IMG/VR virus record: IMGVR_UViG_2684623171_000001 | Reading direction: 5' to 3' (one strand) | DNA: 39,217 nt | From: a virus | Taxonomy: Duplodnaviria; Heunggongvirae; Uroviricota; Caudoviricetes | Part shown: piece by piece, positions 16,113 through 26,476 of the stretch | How the letters are laid out: every line of letters starts with the position of its first letter | Numbering within the stretch: position 1 is the stretch's first letter | Translations under genes and position numbers: made by a program | Notes under the pieces: generated by a model | Seen by the model: the letters and a program-made list of their open reading frames with translations, nothing else | Told to the model about the DNA's origin: nothing | Databases searched by the model: none

Positions 16113-17421
16113 TTTAGGTTATGCCGCCACCCTTCCCTCAAAAGAGGCGGTGGCATACTTCCGCGCCAAAGGGGCGCATATCAGCTGGAACTGGTTCGAA
16201 ACAGACGCAGATGTTCATGCCCGATCGTTCACGGCGGCAAAAGCGGCACGCCTGGACGTACTGACCACACTACAGGCGGAAGTGCAACGGGCCATTGATG
16301 AGGGGATTTCACAGAAAGCATTTATCCGCACACTGACACCCCGCCTGCAAAAGCTGGGATGGTGGGGGAAGCAGATTGTGGTGGACAGCGCCGGTAACGC
16401 AGAAGAAGTACAGCTGGGCAGTCCCCGCCGTCTGGCGCTGATTTACAACGTGAACACCCGCGTGGCTTACAATGCCGGGCGTTACACGCAGATGATGAAC
16501 AACACGGACACGCATCCGTTCTGGCAGTATGTGGCGGTCATGGACAGCCGTACCCGCCCGTCGCATTCCACCCTTAACGGTCTGGTATTCCGCTATGATG
16601 ATCCGTTCTGGAAAACACACTACCCACCCAATGGCTGGAACTGCCGCTGCCGTGTGCGGCCATTGTCTCAGGCCCGTCTGGATGCAATGGGGTTATCCGT
16701 TTCATCCGGTGAGGATCATCTCTCCACCCGCAATGTTGAGGCTGGCGTGGATAAACAGACCGGAGAAGTCAGAGAAATGCCGGTGACCACATATTCAGAT
16801 GGCACCAGAACCATGACACCGGATGTGGGCTGGTCATATAACCCCGGTTCGGCGGCGTTCGGCACAGACCAGGCGCTGATCCGTAAACTGATCGAGGTGA
16901 AAAGCCCGGCGTTACGGGAAATGGTGGTTCAGGAGATGAACAACAGCCCGGAGCGGCAGCTGGCGTTCCGCATCTGGGCAAAAAATATCATGAAAACCCG
17001 GCGCGGTGGTCACGATATCCGCACGCTGGGCTTTATGACCGAAAGTATTGCGCAGGCAGTGGAAAGCCGGACAGGAACGCCACCGGCCCGCCTGCTGGCG
17101 ATGAGCGGTAAAAATGTGCTCCATGCGGACAGTGTGAAACATCAGAATGACGGTATCGCCCTGACGCCGGAGGATTTCGCGCAGCTTCCCGCCATGCTGG
17201 CTGCCCCCGATGCCGTGCTGTGGGATCATGTCCATCAGAACCTGCTTTACATCACTGAAACCCGTGACGGAACGGCAAAGATTGCCGTCAATGCGCCTTA
17301 TGGTGTGAAGCGCCAGCCGGATAAGCTGGATGTGGTAATTAATGCTTACCGGGTAAATAAATTTGATATTGAAAAAGCAATAGAGGGCGGAAAGCTGGAA
17401 CTACTGGAAGGTAAATTGTAA
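16096..17421 (+). CDS. F: Head morphogenesis protein (Mu F-like)
   Basis: 441 aa after the portal; size and synteny match Mu F. Confidence 0.7.
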   Translation: MAQGIDLGYAATLPSKEAVAYFRAKGAHISWNWFETDADVHARSFTAAKAARLDVLTTLQAEVQRAIDEGISQKAFIRTLTPRLQKLGWWGKQIVVDSAGNAEEVQLGSPRRLALIYNVNTRVAYNAGRYTQMMNNTDTHPFWQYVAVMDSRTRPSHSTLNGLVFRYDDPFWKTHYPPNGWNCRCRVRPLSQARLDAMGLSVSSGEDHLSTRNVEAGVDKQTGEVREMPVTTYSDGTRTMTPDVGWSYNPGSAAFGTDQALIRKLIEVKSPALREMVVQEMNNSPERQLAFRIWAKNIMKTRRGGHDIRTLGFMTESIAQAVESRTGTPPARLLAMSGKNVLHADSVKHQNDGIALTPEDFAQLPAMLAAPDAVLWDHVHQNLLYITETRDGTAKIAVNAPYGVKRQPDKLDVVINAYRVNKFDIEKAIEGGKLELLEGKL

Positions 17422-17539
17422 GCCGGTGACGGGGGTCGAACCCGCATAAACATATGACCCCTGAGGGTTTATGCCGCTTTACCAGTTAAGAGTACACCGG
17501 CCTGTATTTATTTTAATCAGATAGTTTTAAGGAGGCAAC

Positions 17540-21664: not shown

Positions 21665-21910
21665 ATGAAAACCATCTTTATCAAACCCGCGCCGGGACGC
21701 CTGATTCGTGATCCCGACACAATGCGCCCGCTGGCACAGGAGGGGGAGGAAAAGCCCTTTACGCCGTTCTGGTGTCGGCGTCTTGATGACGGCGATGTCA
21801 TTCAGGCTGAAAAAGCCGCTGAAGAGGCTCCGGCTGTATCTGCGGATGCAACGACTGCGACAGAAAAACCGGTCGCCCAACCGGCATCCGATAAGGAGAA
21901 ACCGCAATGA
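21665..21910 (+). CDS. Mu gp38-like small protein
   Basis: 81 aa directly upstream of the sheath gene; acidic, Ala-rich C-terminus. Confidence 0.45.
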   Translation: MKTIFIKPAPGRLIRDPDTMRPLAQEGEEKPFTPFWCRRLDDGDVIQAEKAAEEAPAVSADATTATEKPVAQPASDKEKPQ

Positions 21911-23409
21911 TTAATTTTGACGGGATCGGTAATGACCGCCGTATACCGCTGATTGAGGTTGAGTTTAATAACTCCATGGCTGTCACCGGCACTCCGGCAC
22001 AGCGTCAGTGTGTGCTGCTGTTTGGTCAGGCGAGAATGAAAGAGAATGCCGTGGACGGTGCCGGTGTTCTGGATGTTCCGGTCAGGATCACCCGTGCGTC
22101 TCAGGCAACAGAACTCTGGGGGCGCGGCTCCATGATTGCCCTGATGGTGGCGGAATTTATCGCCATCAATCCTGATGCTGAACTGTATGCCATTGCTCAG
22201 GGGAACGGCACCGGACAGGCAACGGCTGCGGCCATGAATCTGACCGGAACGGTCACCCGTGACGGGATTGTTTATGCCTGCGTGGGGGGGCGGCGTTATA
22301 CACTCCCGGCACCAAAAGGTAAGAAAGGCAAAGAACTGACCGACGAGCTGGCCGCGCTGATCAATGCCGATCCTGACGCGCCCTTCACGGCCTCCTCTGG
22401 TGCAGGAAGTGGTGATAATGGCGCAGGTCTGAAAGGGTCTCTGGGGATCACCGCCCGCTTTACCGGTGAATGCTCCGTTCATGATGTGCGCCTGAACTAT
22501 CACGACGGGGAAGCAACCCCGGAAGGAATACAGGTCGCTATAGCCTATCCGAAACAAAAAGCGGCTAACCCGGATATCACCCGAAGCGTGGCGGGTATGG
22601 GCGATCGCCAGTACAACTATGTCGTCATGCCCTATAAGGATGATGCAAACCTGAAAATCATCAGTGATGAGCTTCTGAAACGCTGGGGACCGGCCAAAAT
22701 GTCTGACGGCGTGCTGTGGCTGGCACATACCGGCACGTTTGGTGAGGTGCAGGCATTCGGGGCAAAACGCAATGATTTTCTGGCGACCTGCACATCCATT
22801 CCCAAAGCCCCTGAACCGGATTACCTCTGGGCAGCGGCGGTCTGTGCCACCTGTGCACCCTCTCTGGGAGCAGATCCTGCGCGTCCGCTTCAGACGCTGG
22901 CGCTTCCGTCACGCATGGCCCCGGCTCCGGCCGATCGTCTGACGCGTGAAGAGCGTAACAGTCTGCTGTGGGGAGGGATTGCCACGGTCAGTGTGGCTGC
23001 CGGTGATGTGGTTCAGATCGAACGTCAGGTGACCATGTATCGCCAGAACGTGTACGGCGAAAGTGATCCCAGCTATCTGGATGTGGAAACCATCTACACC
23101 CTCTCCTGGCTGCGTTATTCCCTGCGTACTTTTATCACACAACGTTTTCCGCGCCATAAACTGGCTGATGACGGGACGCCCGTTCGTGCCGGTCAGAATA
23201 TCGTGACGCCGGAGATCATGAAGCTTCAGTTAATTTCGCTGGGTGAAGAGTGGGTGGAACTCGGGCTGGTCGAAAATCTGGACACCTTTAAAAAGAATCT
23301 GCTTGTGGAGCGTAATGCGTCAGATCGAAACCGTCTTGACGTGTTATGCACGCCGGATCTGGTTAACCAGTTCCGCTTCCTGGCAGCACAGATCCGTTTC
23401 ATTTTGTGA
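21907..23409 (+). CDS. L: Tail sheath protein (Mu L-like)
   Basis: 500 aa followed by a ~120-aa tube gene; contractile-tail arrangement. Confidence 0.7.
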   Translation: MINFDGIGNDRRIPLIEVEFNNSMAVTGTPAQRQCVLLFGQARMKENAVDGAGVLDVPVRITRASQATELWGRGSMIALMVAEFIAINPDAELYAIAQGNGTGQATAAAMNLTGTVTRDGIVYACVGGRRYTLPAPKGKKGKELTDELAALINADPDAPFTASSGAGSGDNGAGLKGSLGITARFTGECSVHDVRLNYHDGEATPEGIQVAIAYPKQKAANPDITRSVAGMGDRQYNYVVMPYKDDANLKIISDELLKRWGPAKMSDGVLWLAHTGTFGEVQAFGAKRNDFLATCTSIPKAPEPDYLWAAAVCATCAPSLGADPARPLQTLALPSRMAPAPADRLTREERNSLLWGGIATVSVAAGDVVQIERQVTMYRQNVYGESDPSYLDVETIYTLSWLRYSLRTFITQRFPRHKLADDGTPVRAGQNIVTPEIMKLQLISLGEEWVELGLVENLDTFKKNLLVERNASDRNRLDVLCTPDLVNQFRFLAAQIRFIL

Positions 23410-23417
23410 GGTAAGGC

Positions 23418-23783
23418 ATGAGCGGAAAACAGTATCAGGGTACGGCCACTATCCGTGTGAACGGTCAGGAATACGAGACGCTTGAGGGGGCTACATTTTC
23501 TCCGTCTGGTTTTGAACGTGAAGTGGTGAAAGGCGCGAAAGTCTATGGTTACCGCCAGAAACCACGTGAAGCGACGCTGGACTGCAAATTTCCGGCAGGC
23601 GGAGAAGGTTCACCAGCCGCCGATGAAATCAACAACTGGACTGCGGTCACTATCGAGTTTGTGGCGGATACCGGCGAAGTCCACATGATGACGAAGGCCT
23701 GGAGCAGTGAACCGGCCTCGCTTGACGGTGGCGGGGAGATCTCCGTGAAGTTCGCCAGCGCCTCCAGTACCCGTGTTCAGTGA
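23418..23783 (+). CDS. M: Tail tube protein (Mu M-like)
   Basis: 121 aa directly after the sheath. Confidence 0.65.
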   Translation: MSGKQYQGTATIRVNGQEYETLEGATFSPSGFEREVVKGAKVYGYRQKPREATLDCKFPAGGEGSPAADEINNWTAVTIEFVADTGEVHMMTKAWSSEPASLDGGGEISVKFASASSTRVQ

Positions 23784-24274
23784 TCAGGAAAAATAAAATG
23801 ACCACACGTAAGAAAAAAACGGCAGTTTCCGAGGCAGCCGTGATGGAGGCAATCCGGGAAGCACTTGAGGGGGCTGATCCACGCACTGCCGGGCTGACAG
23901 AGCAACTGGCAAAGGGATATGTGGATCTGCTTGATGGTCTGCCGTTTGGTGAGACCCGTGAATATCGTGTCACGTTCCGGGAACTGACAGCGAAAGACAG
24001 TATTGACGCAGAAGCAGAAGCCGAGCGCGTGGTGGAGACAAACAATGGCCCGATGCTGATAGCGTCTCCGTCGTTACGCGGTGTTGCACTGCTGCGCCGT
24101 CAGATTGCCGCAGTGGGAGACATTGAAGGTCCGTTGTCACCCCGTCAGATTGGACAGTTAAGCGAGCGCGATCTCTCCCGCCTGATGGCAGCGGTCAGCC
24201 TGCTGGATACCGCGCTTGCCGGAAAGCTGGCAGCTGACCGGGGGCGATCAGGCGCAGTGTCGGGATCAGATTGA
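23780..24274 (+). CDS. Tail assembly chaperone; a frameshifted extension to 24398 is likely
   Basis: 164-aa ORF immediately upstream of the tape measure; an overlapping ORF (24216-24398) in a different frame starts at a G5 run. Confidence 0.5.
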   Translation: MIRKNKMTTRKKKTAVSEAAVMEAIREALEGADPRTAGLTEQLAKGYVDLLDGLPFGETREYRVTFRELTAKDSIDAEAEAERVVETNNGPMLIASPSLRGVALLRRQIAAVGDIEGPLSPRQIGQLSERDLSRLMAAVSLLDTALAGKLAADRGRSGAVSGSD

Positions 24275-24400
24275 AGAAGCGGCAATTATCCTGGGGATGG
24301 TGACAAAAAGCGGTCCGGAATGGGCGCTTAACCTCCCCCTGTCGCAACTTTACCGGCACTGCCGACAGACAGAAAAAATCATCAGAACGAAGCAGTAAGT

Positions 24401-26476
24401 ATGGCCCGAAATCTCAGAGCATCTCTGATAGTTGATTTGCTCGGCAATATCTCAGCCAAATCCCGCCAGTGGTCACAGGAGCTGGGGGCATTCTCACGCT
24501 CCGGCCAGGCGGGGCTGGGTGGCCTGGGAAATGCTGCCCGCCGTGCCGGGCAGGAAACAGATGTACTCGGAAGCAGGATGCAGCGCACGCTGGCCGGGGT
24601 GCGGGGCAGTATCCGCCATGTCACTTCTGATTTTGACCGTCTTCAGGGCAGTATTACCGGCACCATCGGGCGGATCAGCAATCTTTACGGAATGCTGGCC
24701 GGTGGTGCTGCTGTATATGGCTTTAACCGGGGATTTATTCGCCCGGCAGCGGAGATGGAAACCTATATGATTCGCCTGAACTCCCTTTACAAAGGGGATC
24801 GGGCGAAAACTGATGATGTCCGCAGGTGGGCAATACAGAATGCGAAGGAAACCACCTGGGGGCTGGCTGGCGTCATGCAGGAATATACGTCCAGTCTGGG
24901 CTTTGGTATGAGTGACAGGGAGGCCCGAAATTTTGTCACCATGCTTCAGGATCAGGGTGCCGTGGGCGGCTGGTCACTGTCCGATGCACAGGGGGCATCC
25001 CTGCAACTGAAACAGATGTATGCAAGAGGCAGTATTCAGGCGGCGGATGCAAATATTCTTGCCACCTACGGCATTAATGCCTACCGCGTGCTGGCTGATC
25101 GTCTGGGTGTGGACCAGAAAGTGGTCAGAAAACTTGGTGAAAAAGGGCTGCTTGGGCCGGACAGTATTCGCCTGTTATTTCAGACGCTGGCGGAACAGGC
25201 CAGGGGAGCACAAAAGGACGCAATGAATTCCTGGAGTGGCCTGACGGCCATGATGGGTGACGTCTGGGACCAGTTTGCCCGGGATGTGATGGACAGTGGG
25301 CCATTTGAAAAACTGAAGGGTAATCTCAGGGGATTTCTTTCATGGGTTGACAGTGCCAAATCTGATGGCAGTTACCATTCCCTGGCGGAAAGCACGGCAT
25401 CAGCCATGAACCAGGGCTTTGAGTATGCCCGTGATGCAGTGACTGGGTTTTATCAGGCGATCAGAAAGGTACGCGACACGCTTCAGGCTCTGCGGGATGC
25501 GGGCTATGGTGATGCGCTGGATCGCATTGGTCAGGGGGCACAGACCGCCGCGAAATACCTGCTGTACATGTATCTCGCCACCCGTGCCCTGAAAATGGCG
25601 CGGGCTGTCGGAACGGGGATTATACGTCCGGGTGCTGCATTGCTGGGATACGGATTATCAGCGGCGGCCTTCCTGACCTCACCTTTCCGGCGCTCTCCTC
25701 CGGCCGGAACACCACCAGGCACATATCAGGGACGAGGGCAACGTTTTATAAACTTTCTTACCGGGGTAAATCCGGCAGCCGTTCAGCCAGTACTTGTAAC
25801 AAACTGGCCCACAGGAGGACTGTCCGGCACCGGCGCGACCGATACATCCTCAGGCGGACGTCAGGGGCGGGGCCGCAGGAAACGCGGACCGGGGCGCGGA
25901 AGACCGGTCACGCCTCCCCTGCCACCGTCCCCAGTGCCACCGTCTCCCTCTTCTGGTGGGGCAGGGTTCTGGGGGCGCATGATGGGGCGCGCCGGTGGGT
26001 TACTTTCGTCTGTCGGTAGCCGCATGGGGCTGGGGCGTTTCTCCGGCTTTTTCCGCAGTGCCGGTGGACTGGCCGGCCGGCTGGGTGGAGGTGCCCTGTG
26101 GGCTGGCGCGATGGCAGCCCCGGTTCTGCTGGATGGCAGCGCCAGTGCCACAGACAAGGGAGAAGCGGTCGGCTCTCTTGCAGGCAGTATTGCCGGTGGT
26201 GCGCTGGGGGCGGCAGCCGGACCTGTGGGGATTGCCATTGGTTCTACGGTGGGCAGCTATCTCGGTAACTATCTGGGGGGATGGCTGACTGAAGCCTGGC
26301 AGAAATTACGGGGCAGTGATGATGAAAGCAGTGGACAGGCGGTACAAAAAGCCTCTGCCCGTGTGGAGCTGGTTGCCCCGGAAGGGTGGCAGGCTCGCAG
26401 TATTGATATTGATGACACGTCCGGTCACGGACTGGATGTGAATGTCTGGAACGGAGGGAATTATGGCCTCTGGTGA
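24401..26476 (+). CDS. Tail tape measure protein
   Basis: 691 aa, Gly/Ala-rich repetitive C-terminal half; located between the chaperone and baseplate genes. Confidence 0.75.
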   Translation: MARNLRASLIVDLLGNISAKSRQWSQELGAFSRSGQAGLGGLGNAARRAGQETDVLGSRMQRTLAGVRGSIRHVTSDFDRLQGSITGTIGRISNLYGMLAGGAAVYGFNRGFIRPAAEMETYMIRLNSLYKGDRAKTDDVRRWAIQNAKETTWGLAGVMQEYTSSLGFGMSDREARNFVTMLQDQGAVGGWSLSDAQGASLQLKQMYARGSIQAADANILATYGINAYRVLADRLGVDQKVVRKLGEKGLLGPDSIRLLFQTLAEQARGAQKDAMNSWSGLTAMMGDVWDQFARDVMDSGPFEKLKGNLRGFLSWVDSAKSDGSYHSLAESTASAMNQGFEYARDAVTGFYQAIRKVRDTLQALRDAGYGDALDRIGQGAQTAAKYLLYMYLATRALKMARAVGTGIIRPGAALLGYGLSAAAFLTSPFRRSPPAGTPPGTYQGRGQRFINFLTGVNPAAVQPVLVTNWPTGGLSGTGATDTSSGGRQGRGRRKRGPGRGRPVTPPLPPSPVPPSPSSGGAGFWGRMMGRAGGLLSSVGSRMGLGRFSGFFRSAGGLAGRLGGGALWAGAMAAPVLLDGSASATDKGEAVGSLAGSIAGGALGAAAGPVGIAIGSTVGSYLGNYLGGWLTEAWQKLRGSDDESSGQAVQKASARVELVAPEGWQARSIDIDDTSGHGLDVNVWNGGNYGLW

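Follow-up and report, generated by a model that had tools for sequence, protein, structure and literature searches.

A predicted Mu-type -2 frameshift in the gene for the tail assembly chaperone of a Mu-like Escherichia coli prophage

In a Mu-like prophage of Escherichia coli, the tail assembly chaperone gene and the tape measure gene are separated by 126 nt (24275-24400), which are left unannotated by PGAP in the RefSeq record of an identical prophage. The question addressed here is whether these nucleotides form a spacer, encode a small protein of their own or specify the end of a longer chaperone that is reached by a change of reading frame. The DNA analysed, hereafter referred to as the window, is a stretch of 39,217 nt and represents the complete prophage. 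An initial annotation, made from the letters of the window, had proposed a programmed -2 (or +1) frameshift at this place, and the proposal is supported in the present analysis by the homology of the chaperone to gp41 of phage Mu, by a slippery site identical to that of Mu and by a homologous and conserved extension. As judged from sequence comparison, Mu-type -2 slippage at 24239-24247 very probably yields a 200-aa fusion protein beside the 158-aa chaperone.

The prophage and its chaperone locus

The genes annotated in the prophage include a Mu-type transposase, Mor, Com, Mom, an invertible tail-fibre segment and Mu-like head and tail genes. Of the 5426 complete E. coli genomes, 228 carry the element, and the queried stretch 23400-24500 of the window is matched by 184 records at an identity of at least 99%, the prophages in many E. 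coli genomes being 100% identical to the window over this stretch. Many of the carriers of the prophage lineage are Shiga-toxin-producing E. coli strains. A closely related Mu-like prophage, itself identical to the window over the queried 23400-24500 stretch, interrupts the portal gene of a second prophage, of lambdoid type, in E. coli O26 RM10386, and an 87%-identical element lies inside Stx1a- and Stx2c-converting phages, where it is recorded as 'region of the inserted Bacteriophage Mu-like phage'. Both are cases of phage-within-phage insertion.

A separate observation concerns a 'tRNA-OTHER' feature, which is annotated in RefSeq NZ_CP028126.1 at the spot corresponding to window 17421-17501, on the minus strand, between the head-morphogenesis and virion-morphogenesis genes. 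These 81 nt have acceptor-like ends (GCCGGTG/CACCGGC), a T-arm-like GGGTTCGACCCCC and a cloverleaf-like RNA fold (z -1.7); no tRNA was predicted in them by ARAGORN and no match was obtained in Rfam.

The features of the chaperone locus are listed in Table 1. The identification of the gene product as a tail assembly chaperone, made in the initial annotation, is borne out by its homology to Mu gp41 and by its match to the Pfam family Gp41_Mu (PF23746; E 7e-32, 110.2 bits against a cutoff of 27). The protein also matches phrog_508, 'tail assembly chaperone' (E 1.2e-46), and just clears the threshold of Phage_TAC_7 (PF10109; E 1.1e-5, 25.8 bits against a cutoff of 25). The ORF of 164 aa described earlier does extend from a GTG at 23780 to 24274; ATG 23798, which is preceded by AGGA 8 nt upstream and is the start used in RefSeq (WP_000213225.1, 158 aa), is the likelier start of the chaperone.

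Table 1. Features of the chaperone locus in the window, and of an upstream element in relatives
Feature	Position	Strand	Description
Sheath gene	21907-23409		
Tail tube gene	23418..23783	+	Pfam Tail_tube PF10618, E 3.3e-31; RefSeq 'phage tail tube protein'; directly upstream of chaperone
gp41-like tail assembly chaperone	23798..24274	+	Standard decoding, 158 aa, 16.8 kDa; TGA 24272-24274
Slippery site C GG GGG CGA	24239..24247	+	Identical to Mu site; GGGGCGA in 102/102 homologous loci
C-terminal extension, -2/+1 frame	24246..24398	+	50 codons, DQAQCRDQIEEAAIILGMVTKSGPEWALNLPLSQLYRHCRQTEKIIRTKQ, then TAA 24396-24398
Predicted fusion	join(23798..24247, 24246..24398)	+	200 aa, 21.9 kDa, ...AADRGR-DQAQCRDQIEEAAIILGMVTKSGPEWALNLPLSQLYRHCRQTEKIIRTKQ
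Tape measure gene	24401..26476	+	Pfam TMP_3 PF20155, E 1.9e-18; RefSeq 'tape measure protein'
Upstream GGAGG(T) element in relatives	e.g. L011 1818-1855, L094 1758-1795, L096 1818-1855		Loci L010-L016 and L079-L100

The run of five G noted earlier (24240-24244) is read GAC CGG GGG CGA in the chaperone frame, with CGG at 24239-41, GGG at 24242-44 and CGA at 24245-47 as the zero-frame codons of the site, and the octamer GG GGG CGA (24240-24247) lies 9 codons before the chaperone stop. The overlapping ORF, as the initial annotation had described it, comprises 60 codons in the frame displaced forward by one nucleotide (23780 mod 3 is 2, 24216 mod 3 is 0) and occupies 24216-24398, beginning with a TTG. 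From the slippery site this +1/-2 frame is open to the extension stop at 24398, leaving 2 nt between that stop and the ATG of the tape-measure gene. In the -1 frame there is a stop, TGA 24235-24237, shortly upstream of the site, and beyond the chaperone stop only 9 further codons are open, too few for a ribosome shifted by -1 to arrive at the tape-measure gene; a simple -1 frameshift, already discounted in the initial annotation, was therefore rejected.

Considered alone, neither the motif nor the ORF is beyond chance. The window contains one copy of GGGGGCGA against 2.33 expected, at least one copy is present in 91 of 100 shuffles, and 51 ORFs of at least 40 aa are found in a 6-kb stretch here. 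Because the pattern in a single sequence does not exceed chance, the case for a real signal rests on comparative evidence.

The length of the fused product, earlier put at about 205 aa, was computed as 200 aa if translation starts at ATG 23798 and as 206 aa if it starts at GTG 23780. In RefSeq the short chaperone alone is listed and the fused product is unannotated. A search with the junction and the extension against a database of 5.8 billion proteins returned no fusion, just three short 'hypothetical proteins', and searches of NCBIfam and of PDB sequences with the fusion gave nothing meaningful. The extension matches phrog_12783, a 54-aa family of 'unknown function' (E 4e-37), and the equivalent ORF of phage D108 is annotated as a separate gene, '41.5'. 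The single-sequence AlphaFold2 model of the fusion is weak (mean pLDDT 51), with moderate confidence and helical structure in the C-terminal 90 residues only; the extension is modelled as helices with pLDDT of about 73-79.

Comparison with Mu and other relatives

The initial annotation had pointed to the chaperone frameshift site of Mu for comparison, and the two sites proved to be identical in sequence and frame: the 9-nt CGGGGGCGA is common to the window and to Mu, where it is located at 1858-1866 of the Mu locus L001 (octamer GG GGG CGA at 1859-1866) and read in the gp41 frame as GAA CGG GGG CGA GTG. The chaperone is 49% identical to Mu gp41 (tblastn E 2e-26), the extensions are 55% identical to each other (E 5e-20) and the window fusion aligns with the Mu fusion at 49% identity over 167 aa (E 3e-56), gapless across the junction. 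The order sheath, tube, gp41, extension and tape measure is the same in both phages, and in both a homologous 50-residue extension in the +1/-2 frame ends just before the tape-measure gene. The window differs from Mu in representing another phage lineage, with about 50% protein identity to Mu in this region, in the longer N-terminus of its chaperone (158 aa, against 144 in Mu) and in the zero-frame tail past the site, which is longer (GRSGAVSGSD) than that of Mu (GRVAAVPE); in addition, the Mu fusion is annotated (Mu_56), whereas that of the window is a prediction absent from RefSeq.

The -2 ribosomal frameshift of Mu was reportedly verified experimentally by Xu, Hendrix and Duda in 2004, at a level of about 2%. 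The statement in the initial annotation that Mu uses a -2 shift on a G-rich site is in agreement with GenBank Mu_56, PMC3458567, PMC3498833 and PMC5009743. The joined CDS Mu_56 in GenBank AF083977 is labelled 'verified -2 translational frameshift in PMID 15469818; tail assembly chaperone frameshift product'. For Mu, tandem -2 slippage on GG GGG CGA has been described, with the A-site tRNA-Arg (anticodon ICG) re-pairing better in the -2 than in the -1 frame (PMC3458567), and the efficiency of the Mu frameshift is given as about 2.2% (PMC3498833). Mu is among the few natural -2 cases, and a -2 shift specifies one amino acid more than a +1 shift (PMC5009743). On the strength of these sequence similarities, the locus is classed as a putative Mu-type -2 frameshift chaperone in a Mu-like E. 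coli prophage, which is a known and well-understood kind of signal.

Homologous loci were gathered by protein similarity to the gp41 body only, the motif playing no part in their selection. They were obtained from reference genomes (14), from IMG/VR (79) and from seven phage records, which include Mu, D108, Alteromonadaceae phage B23, Pasteurella Pmp9, Shewanella MuM16-2 and Vibrio phages. The complete conservation of GGGGCGA at the homologous place (Table 1) extends down to about 35% protein identity, and 99 of the 102 loci show xGG GGG CGA, a zero-frame stop 3-11 codons further on and an extension of 47-51 residues in the +1/-2 frame. The second ORF, on whose conservation in relatives the initial annotation had made its proposal depend, is kept in these 99 loci.

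Among the 73 unique sequences, the context of the site is CGGGGGCGA in 62, AAGGGGCGA in eight, AGGGGGCGA in two and GGGGGGCGA in one. The codons GGG and CGA are present at the site in 100% of the sequences and account elsewhere in these genes for 18% of the Gly and 10.5% of the Arg codons, respectively; being minor elsewhere yet invariant at the site, they indicate conservation at the nucleotide level and not at the protein level. Differences in the extension among close relatives are distributed as 3296/1554/6287 over positions 1/2/3 of the shifted-frame codons, and the extension evolves as a coding sequence in the shifted frame, though it is widely divergent. What the present analysis shows is the anatomy of the locus, its homology and that both the site and the shifted ORF are conserved.

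These data bear on an explanation without recoding, in which 24216-24398 would be a separately translated small protein or a non-coding spacer that is open by chance. Chance ORFs of similar size are common in the stretch, and the equivalent ORF is annotated on its own as D108 '41.5', as the three 'hypothetical proteins' and as phrog_12783. The explanation is nevertheless very improbable: it leaves the invariant slippery octamer unaccounted for, and the stretch codes for protein in the shifted frame and its conservation extends from E. coli to Vibrio, so that it is not a spacer. As regards separate translation, 32 of the 73 unique relatives have an ATG 2 codons past the slip point, at the place homologous to window 24252-24254 (L013, L029, L079, L096, L097 and others), with the G run 7 nt upstream as a Shine-Dalgarno (SD) sequence (-8.8 kcal/mol), and these relatives could in principle also initiate the extension independently. 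The window has GCG instead of this ATG and Mu has CTG. Anti-SD pairing in the window amounts to -3.1 kcal/mol for TTG 24216, -1.7 for ATG 24297 and -2.0 for GTG 24300, and Mu too is without a candidate start. Independent initiation of the window extension was rejected, as no start with a usable SD sequence and no promoter-like site was found.

The three loci that depart from the frame arrangement are L006, L057 (Kluyvera genomosp. 3, CP022114) and L007 (Erwinia tracheiphila ICMP 5845). At 1847, each of them has one G fewer (CGGGGCGA), and the chaperone and the extension are fused in the DNA (...ERGEWLQCRNEIEQ...). In L006 there is a second apparent frame break downstream, where the shifted-frame ...MLKG departs from the GGPEWAL of the relatives and the GGPEWAL motif is met again in a different frame; a further E. 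tracheiphila record (P0104) has the normal arrangement. In view of the second frame break in L006, the three loci most likely represent homopolymer (long-read) assembly errors rather than natural fusion-only variants.

A deletion of one G does, however, fuse the frames in these three DNA sequences, and together with the homopolymer run at the junction this is in keeping with transcriptional slippage, whereby RNA polymerase would lose one G or add two in the G5 run and an in-frame subset of mRNA would arise. Productive slippage of RNA polymerase normally needs longer runs, typically of 7-9 or more A or T. At five G, and at four in one clade, the run here is short, slippage would not account for the neighbouring CGA being invariant, and the Mu event is described as translational (GenBank Mu_56, PMC3458567), all of which makes a transcriptional origin of the fusion extremely improbable.

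Direction of the shift and possible stimulators

According to the proposed Mu-type mechanism, most ribosomes would stop at TGA 24272-24274 and give the 158-aa chaperone, and a small share, about 2% if the site behaves as that of Mu, would slip with GGG (24242-44) in the P site and CGA (24245-47) in the A site. Both tRNAs would step back two nucleotides, the P site coming to GGG 24240-42, on which the re-pairing of tRNA-Gly would be perfect, and the A site to GGC 24243-45, on which tRNA-Arg (anticodon ICG) would re-pair at two of three positions. Decoding would restart at GAT 24246 and run to TAA 24396-98, and the outcome would be a 200-aa fusion, ...AADRGR-DQAQCR..., consisting of the N-terminal chaperone body and a 50-residue tail predicted to be helical. 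We infer the -2 direction from homology to Mu, and slippage in the prophage, its efficiency and the role of the extension are likewise put forward here as expectations.

Shifts of -2 and +1 lead to the same frame, the sequence is compatible with both and their products differ by a single Arg. In a +1 shift, the slow CGA would stand in an empty A site and the P-site tRNA-Gly would slide from GGG 24242-44 to GGC 24243-45, giving a product of 199 aa without the Arg. Such a 'hungry A-site' model is suited by the CGA codon, invariant in all the relatives and minor among Arg codons (10.5%), and there are other phage tail chaperone genes for which a +1 shift is known (PMC5009743, PMC3498833). It is further suited by the clade with AAG GGG CGA, which retains the GGG-to-GGC option and loses the perfect -2 re-pairing. 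The -2 direction is favoured because it has been determined for the identical 9-nt site in Mu (GenBank Mu_56, PMC3458567, PMC3498833, PMC5009743) and because in 65 of the 73 unique sequences the GGG codon is preceded by two or more G, which a -2 shift requires for perfect P-site re-pairing and a +1 shift does not; a +1 shift in the window is accordingly considered improbable.

The four-G variant, GAC AAG GGG CGA, was observed in eight unique sequences (L003, L038-L042, L045 and L047), which belong to Citrobacter braakii and IMG/VR contigs and are 67-84% identical to the window chaperone; the matching DKGR motif occurs in proteins of Salmonella, Klebsiella and Serratia. In this variant a -2 slip would bring the P-site tRNA-Gly onto AGG, with which it would re-pair imperfectly. 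The clade has GGCAGGTG (-8.7 kcal/mol) 4 nt upstream, and it might use a +1 shift or single-tRNA slippage.

No stimulatory element was detected at the window site by the searches performed. The 105 nt of potential downstream RNA structure (24236-24340) fold no better than shuffled sequences (z -0.10), RNAalifold with 11 aligned relatives gave 8 pairs with no compensatory change or covariation, and the Rfam scan of the whole window gave no family at the gathering score. The best upstream anti-SD pairing in the window, -3.5 kcal/mol, is within the gene background, and an SD-like stimulator is likewise absent in Mu, with a pairing of -4.8. The window site was therefore not placed in the class of cis-stimulated sites, which have a downstream hairpin or pseudoknot or a dnaX-like upstream SD.

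In distant gp41 clades, a strong SD-like GGAGG(T) was observed 6-10 nt upstream of the G run (Table 1). These clades comprise Serratia, Brenneria, Pluralibacter, Vibrio, Shewanella, Alteromonadaceae phage B23 and Pasteurella Pmp9. In many of them the element pairs with the anti-SD at -9 to -11 kcal/mol, the 5th percentile of the gene background being about -6. A Glu codon at the element is GAG in 17 of 17 unique sequences and never GAA, as against 46% GAG elsewhere, and a codon other than Glu is GGG, AAG, CAG or GCG. The GGAGG-like element might serve, in the style of dnaX, to stimulate backward slippage from upstream.

It is conceivable, if rather unlikely, that the gp41 family represents a natural series of ways into the +1/-2 frame. 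In such a series, the clade of Mu and the window may slip by -2 on GG GGG CGA without a detectable cis stimulator, the invariant GAG at the element of the distant clades suggests a dnaX-style stimulator, and the Salmonella/Citrobacter/Serratia clade with AAG GGG CGA may have moved to +1 or single-tRNA slippage. Were this so, the mechanism would have its shared core in the invariant CGA, which is an I:A wobble codon, and the window prophage would be a convenient model, native to E. coli, of -2 frameshifting without a stimulator.

Relation to other frameshift systems

In phage lambda, a -1 frameshift gives rise to the short and extended chaperones of the G/GT system, neither of which is present in the virion (PMC5009743). 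The window locus resembles lambda G/GT in its place, with the major tail gene on one side and the tape-measure gene on the other, and in a low-level frameshift near the 3' end that, in the window as predicted, sets the ratio of short to extended chaperone. It differs in the slippery sequence and direction, -1 on G GGA AAG in lambda as against -2 on GG GGG CGA, in the lack of detectable sequence similarity and in the phage type, lambda being a siphovirus and the window a contractile-tailed Mu-like phage. The locus was not assigned to the lambda G/GT type, defined by a -1 extension on X XXY YYZ, since its -1 frame is closed; the resemblance is one of function and position, not of membership. If the analogy with lambda G/GT holds, the prophage would make its short and long chaperones in a fixed ratio and both would bind to the tape-measure protein, the extension would recruit tail tube or sheath assembly around it, and neither chaperone would be found in the virion. 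The role of the extension is thus proposed from this analogy.

The E/E+E' system of phage P2 uses a -1 shift. It is similar to the window locus in being a myovirus tail chaperone pair made via frameshifting, with PF10109 shared, though marginally, and a GenBank note on Mu_41 (AF083977) points to the P2 chaperone system; it differs in the direction of its shift and in the marginal similarity of the window protein. The nsp2TF of arterivirus (PRRSV) is another of the few natural -2 programmed frameshifts, with an efficiency of about 20% (PMC5009743), and differs in belonging to a eukaryotic RNA virus, in using another slippery sequence and in encoding unrelated proteins.

The understanding of the -2 mechanism is unchanged by the present finding. 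Mildly novel material comes from the relatives only, namely the upstream GGAGG-like element, the four-G clade and the ATG past the slip point. The main gain is one of annotation, whereby a predicted tail-assembly protein of 200 aa is added to prophages in which the 126 nt after the chaperone gene had appeared to be non-coding, and the known conservation of a rare natural -2 signal is extended across the Enterobacterales, Pasteurella, Vibrio, Shewanella and the Alteromonadaceae.
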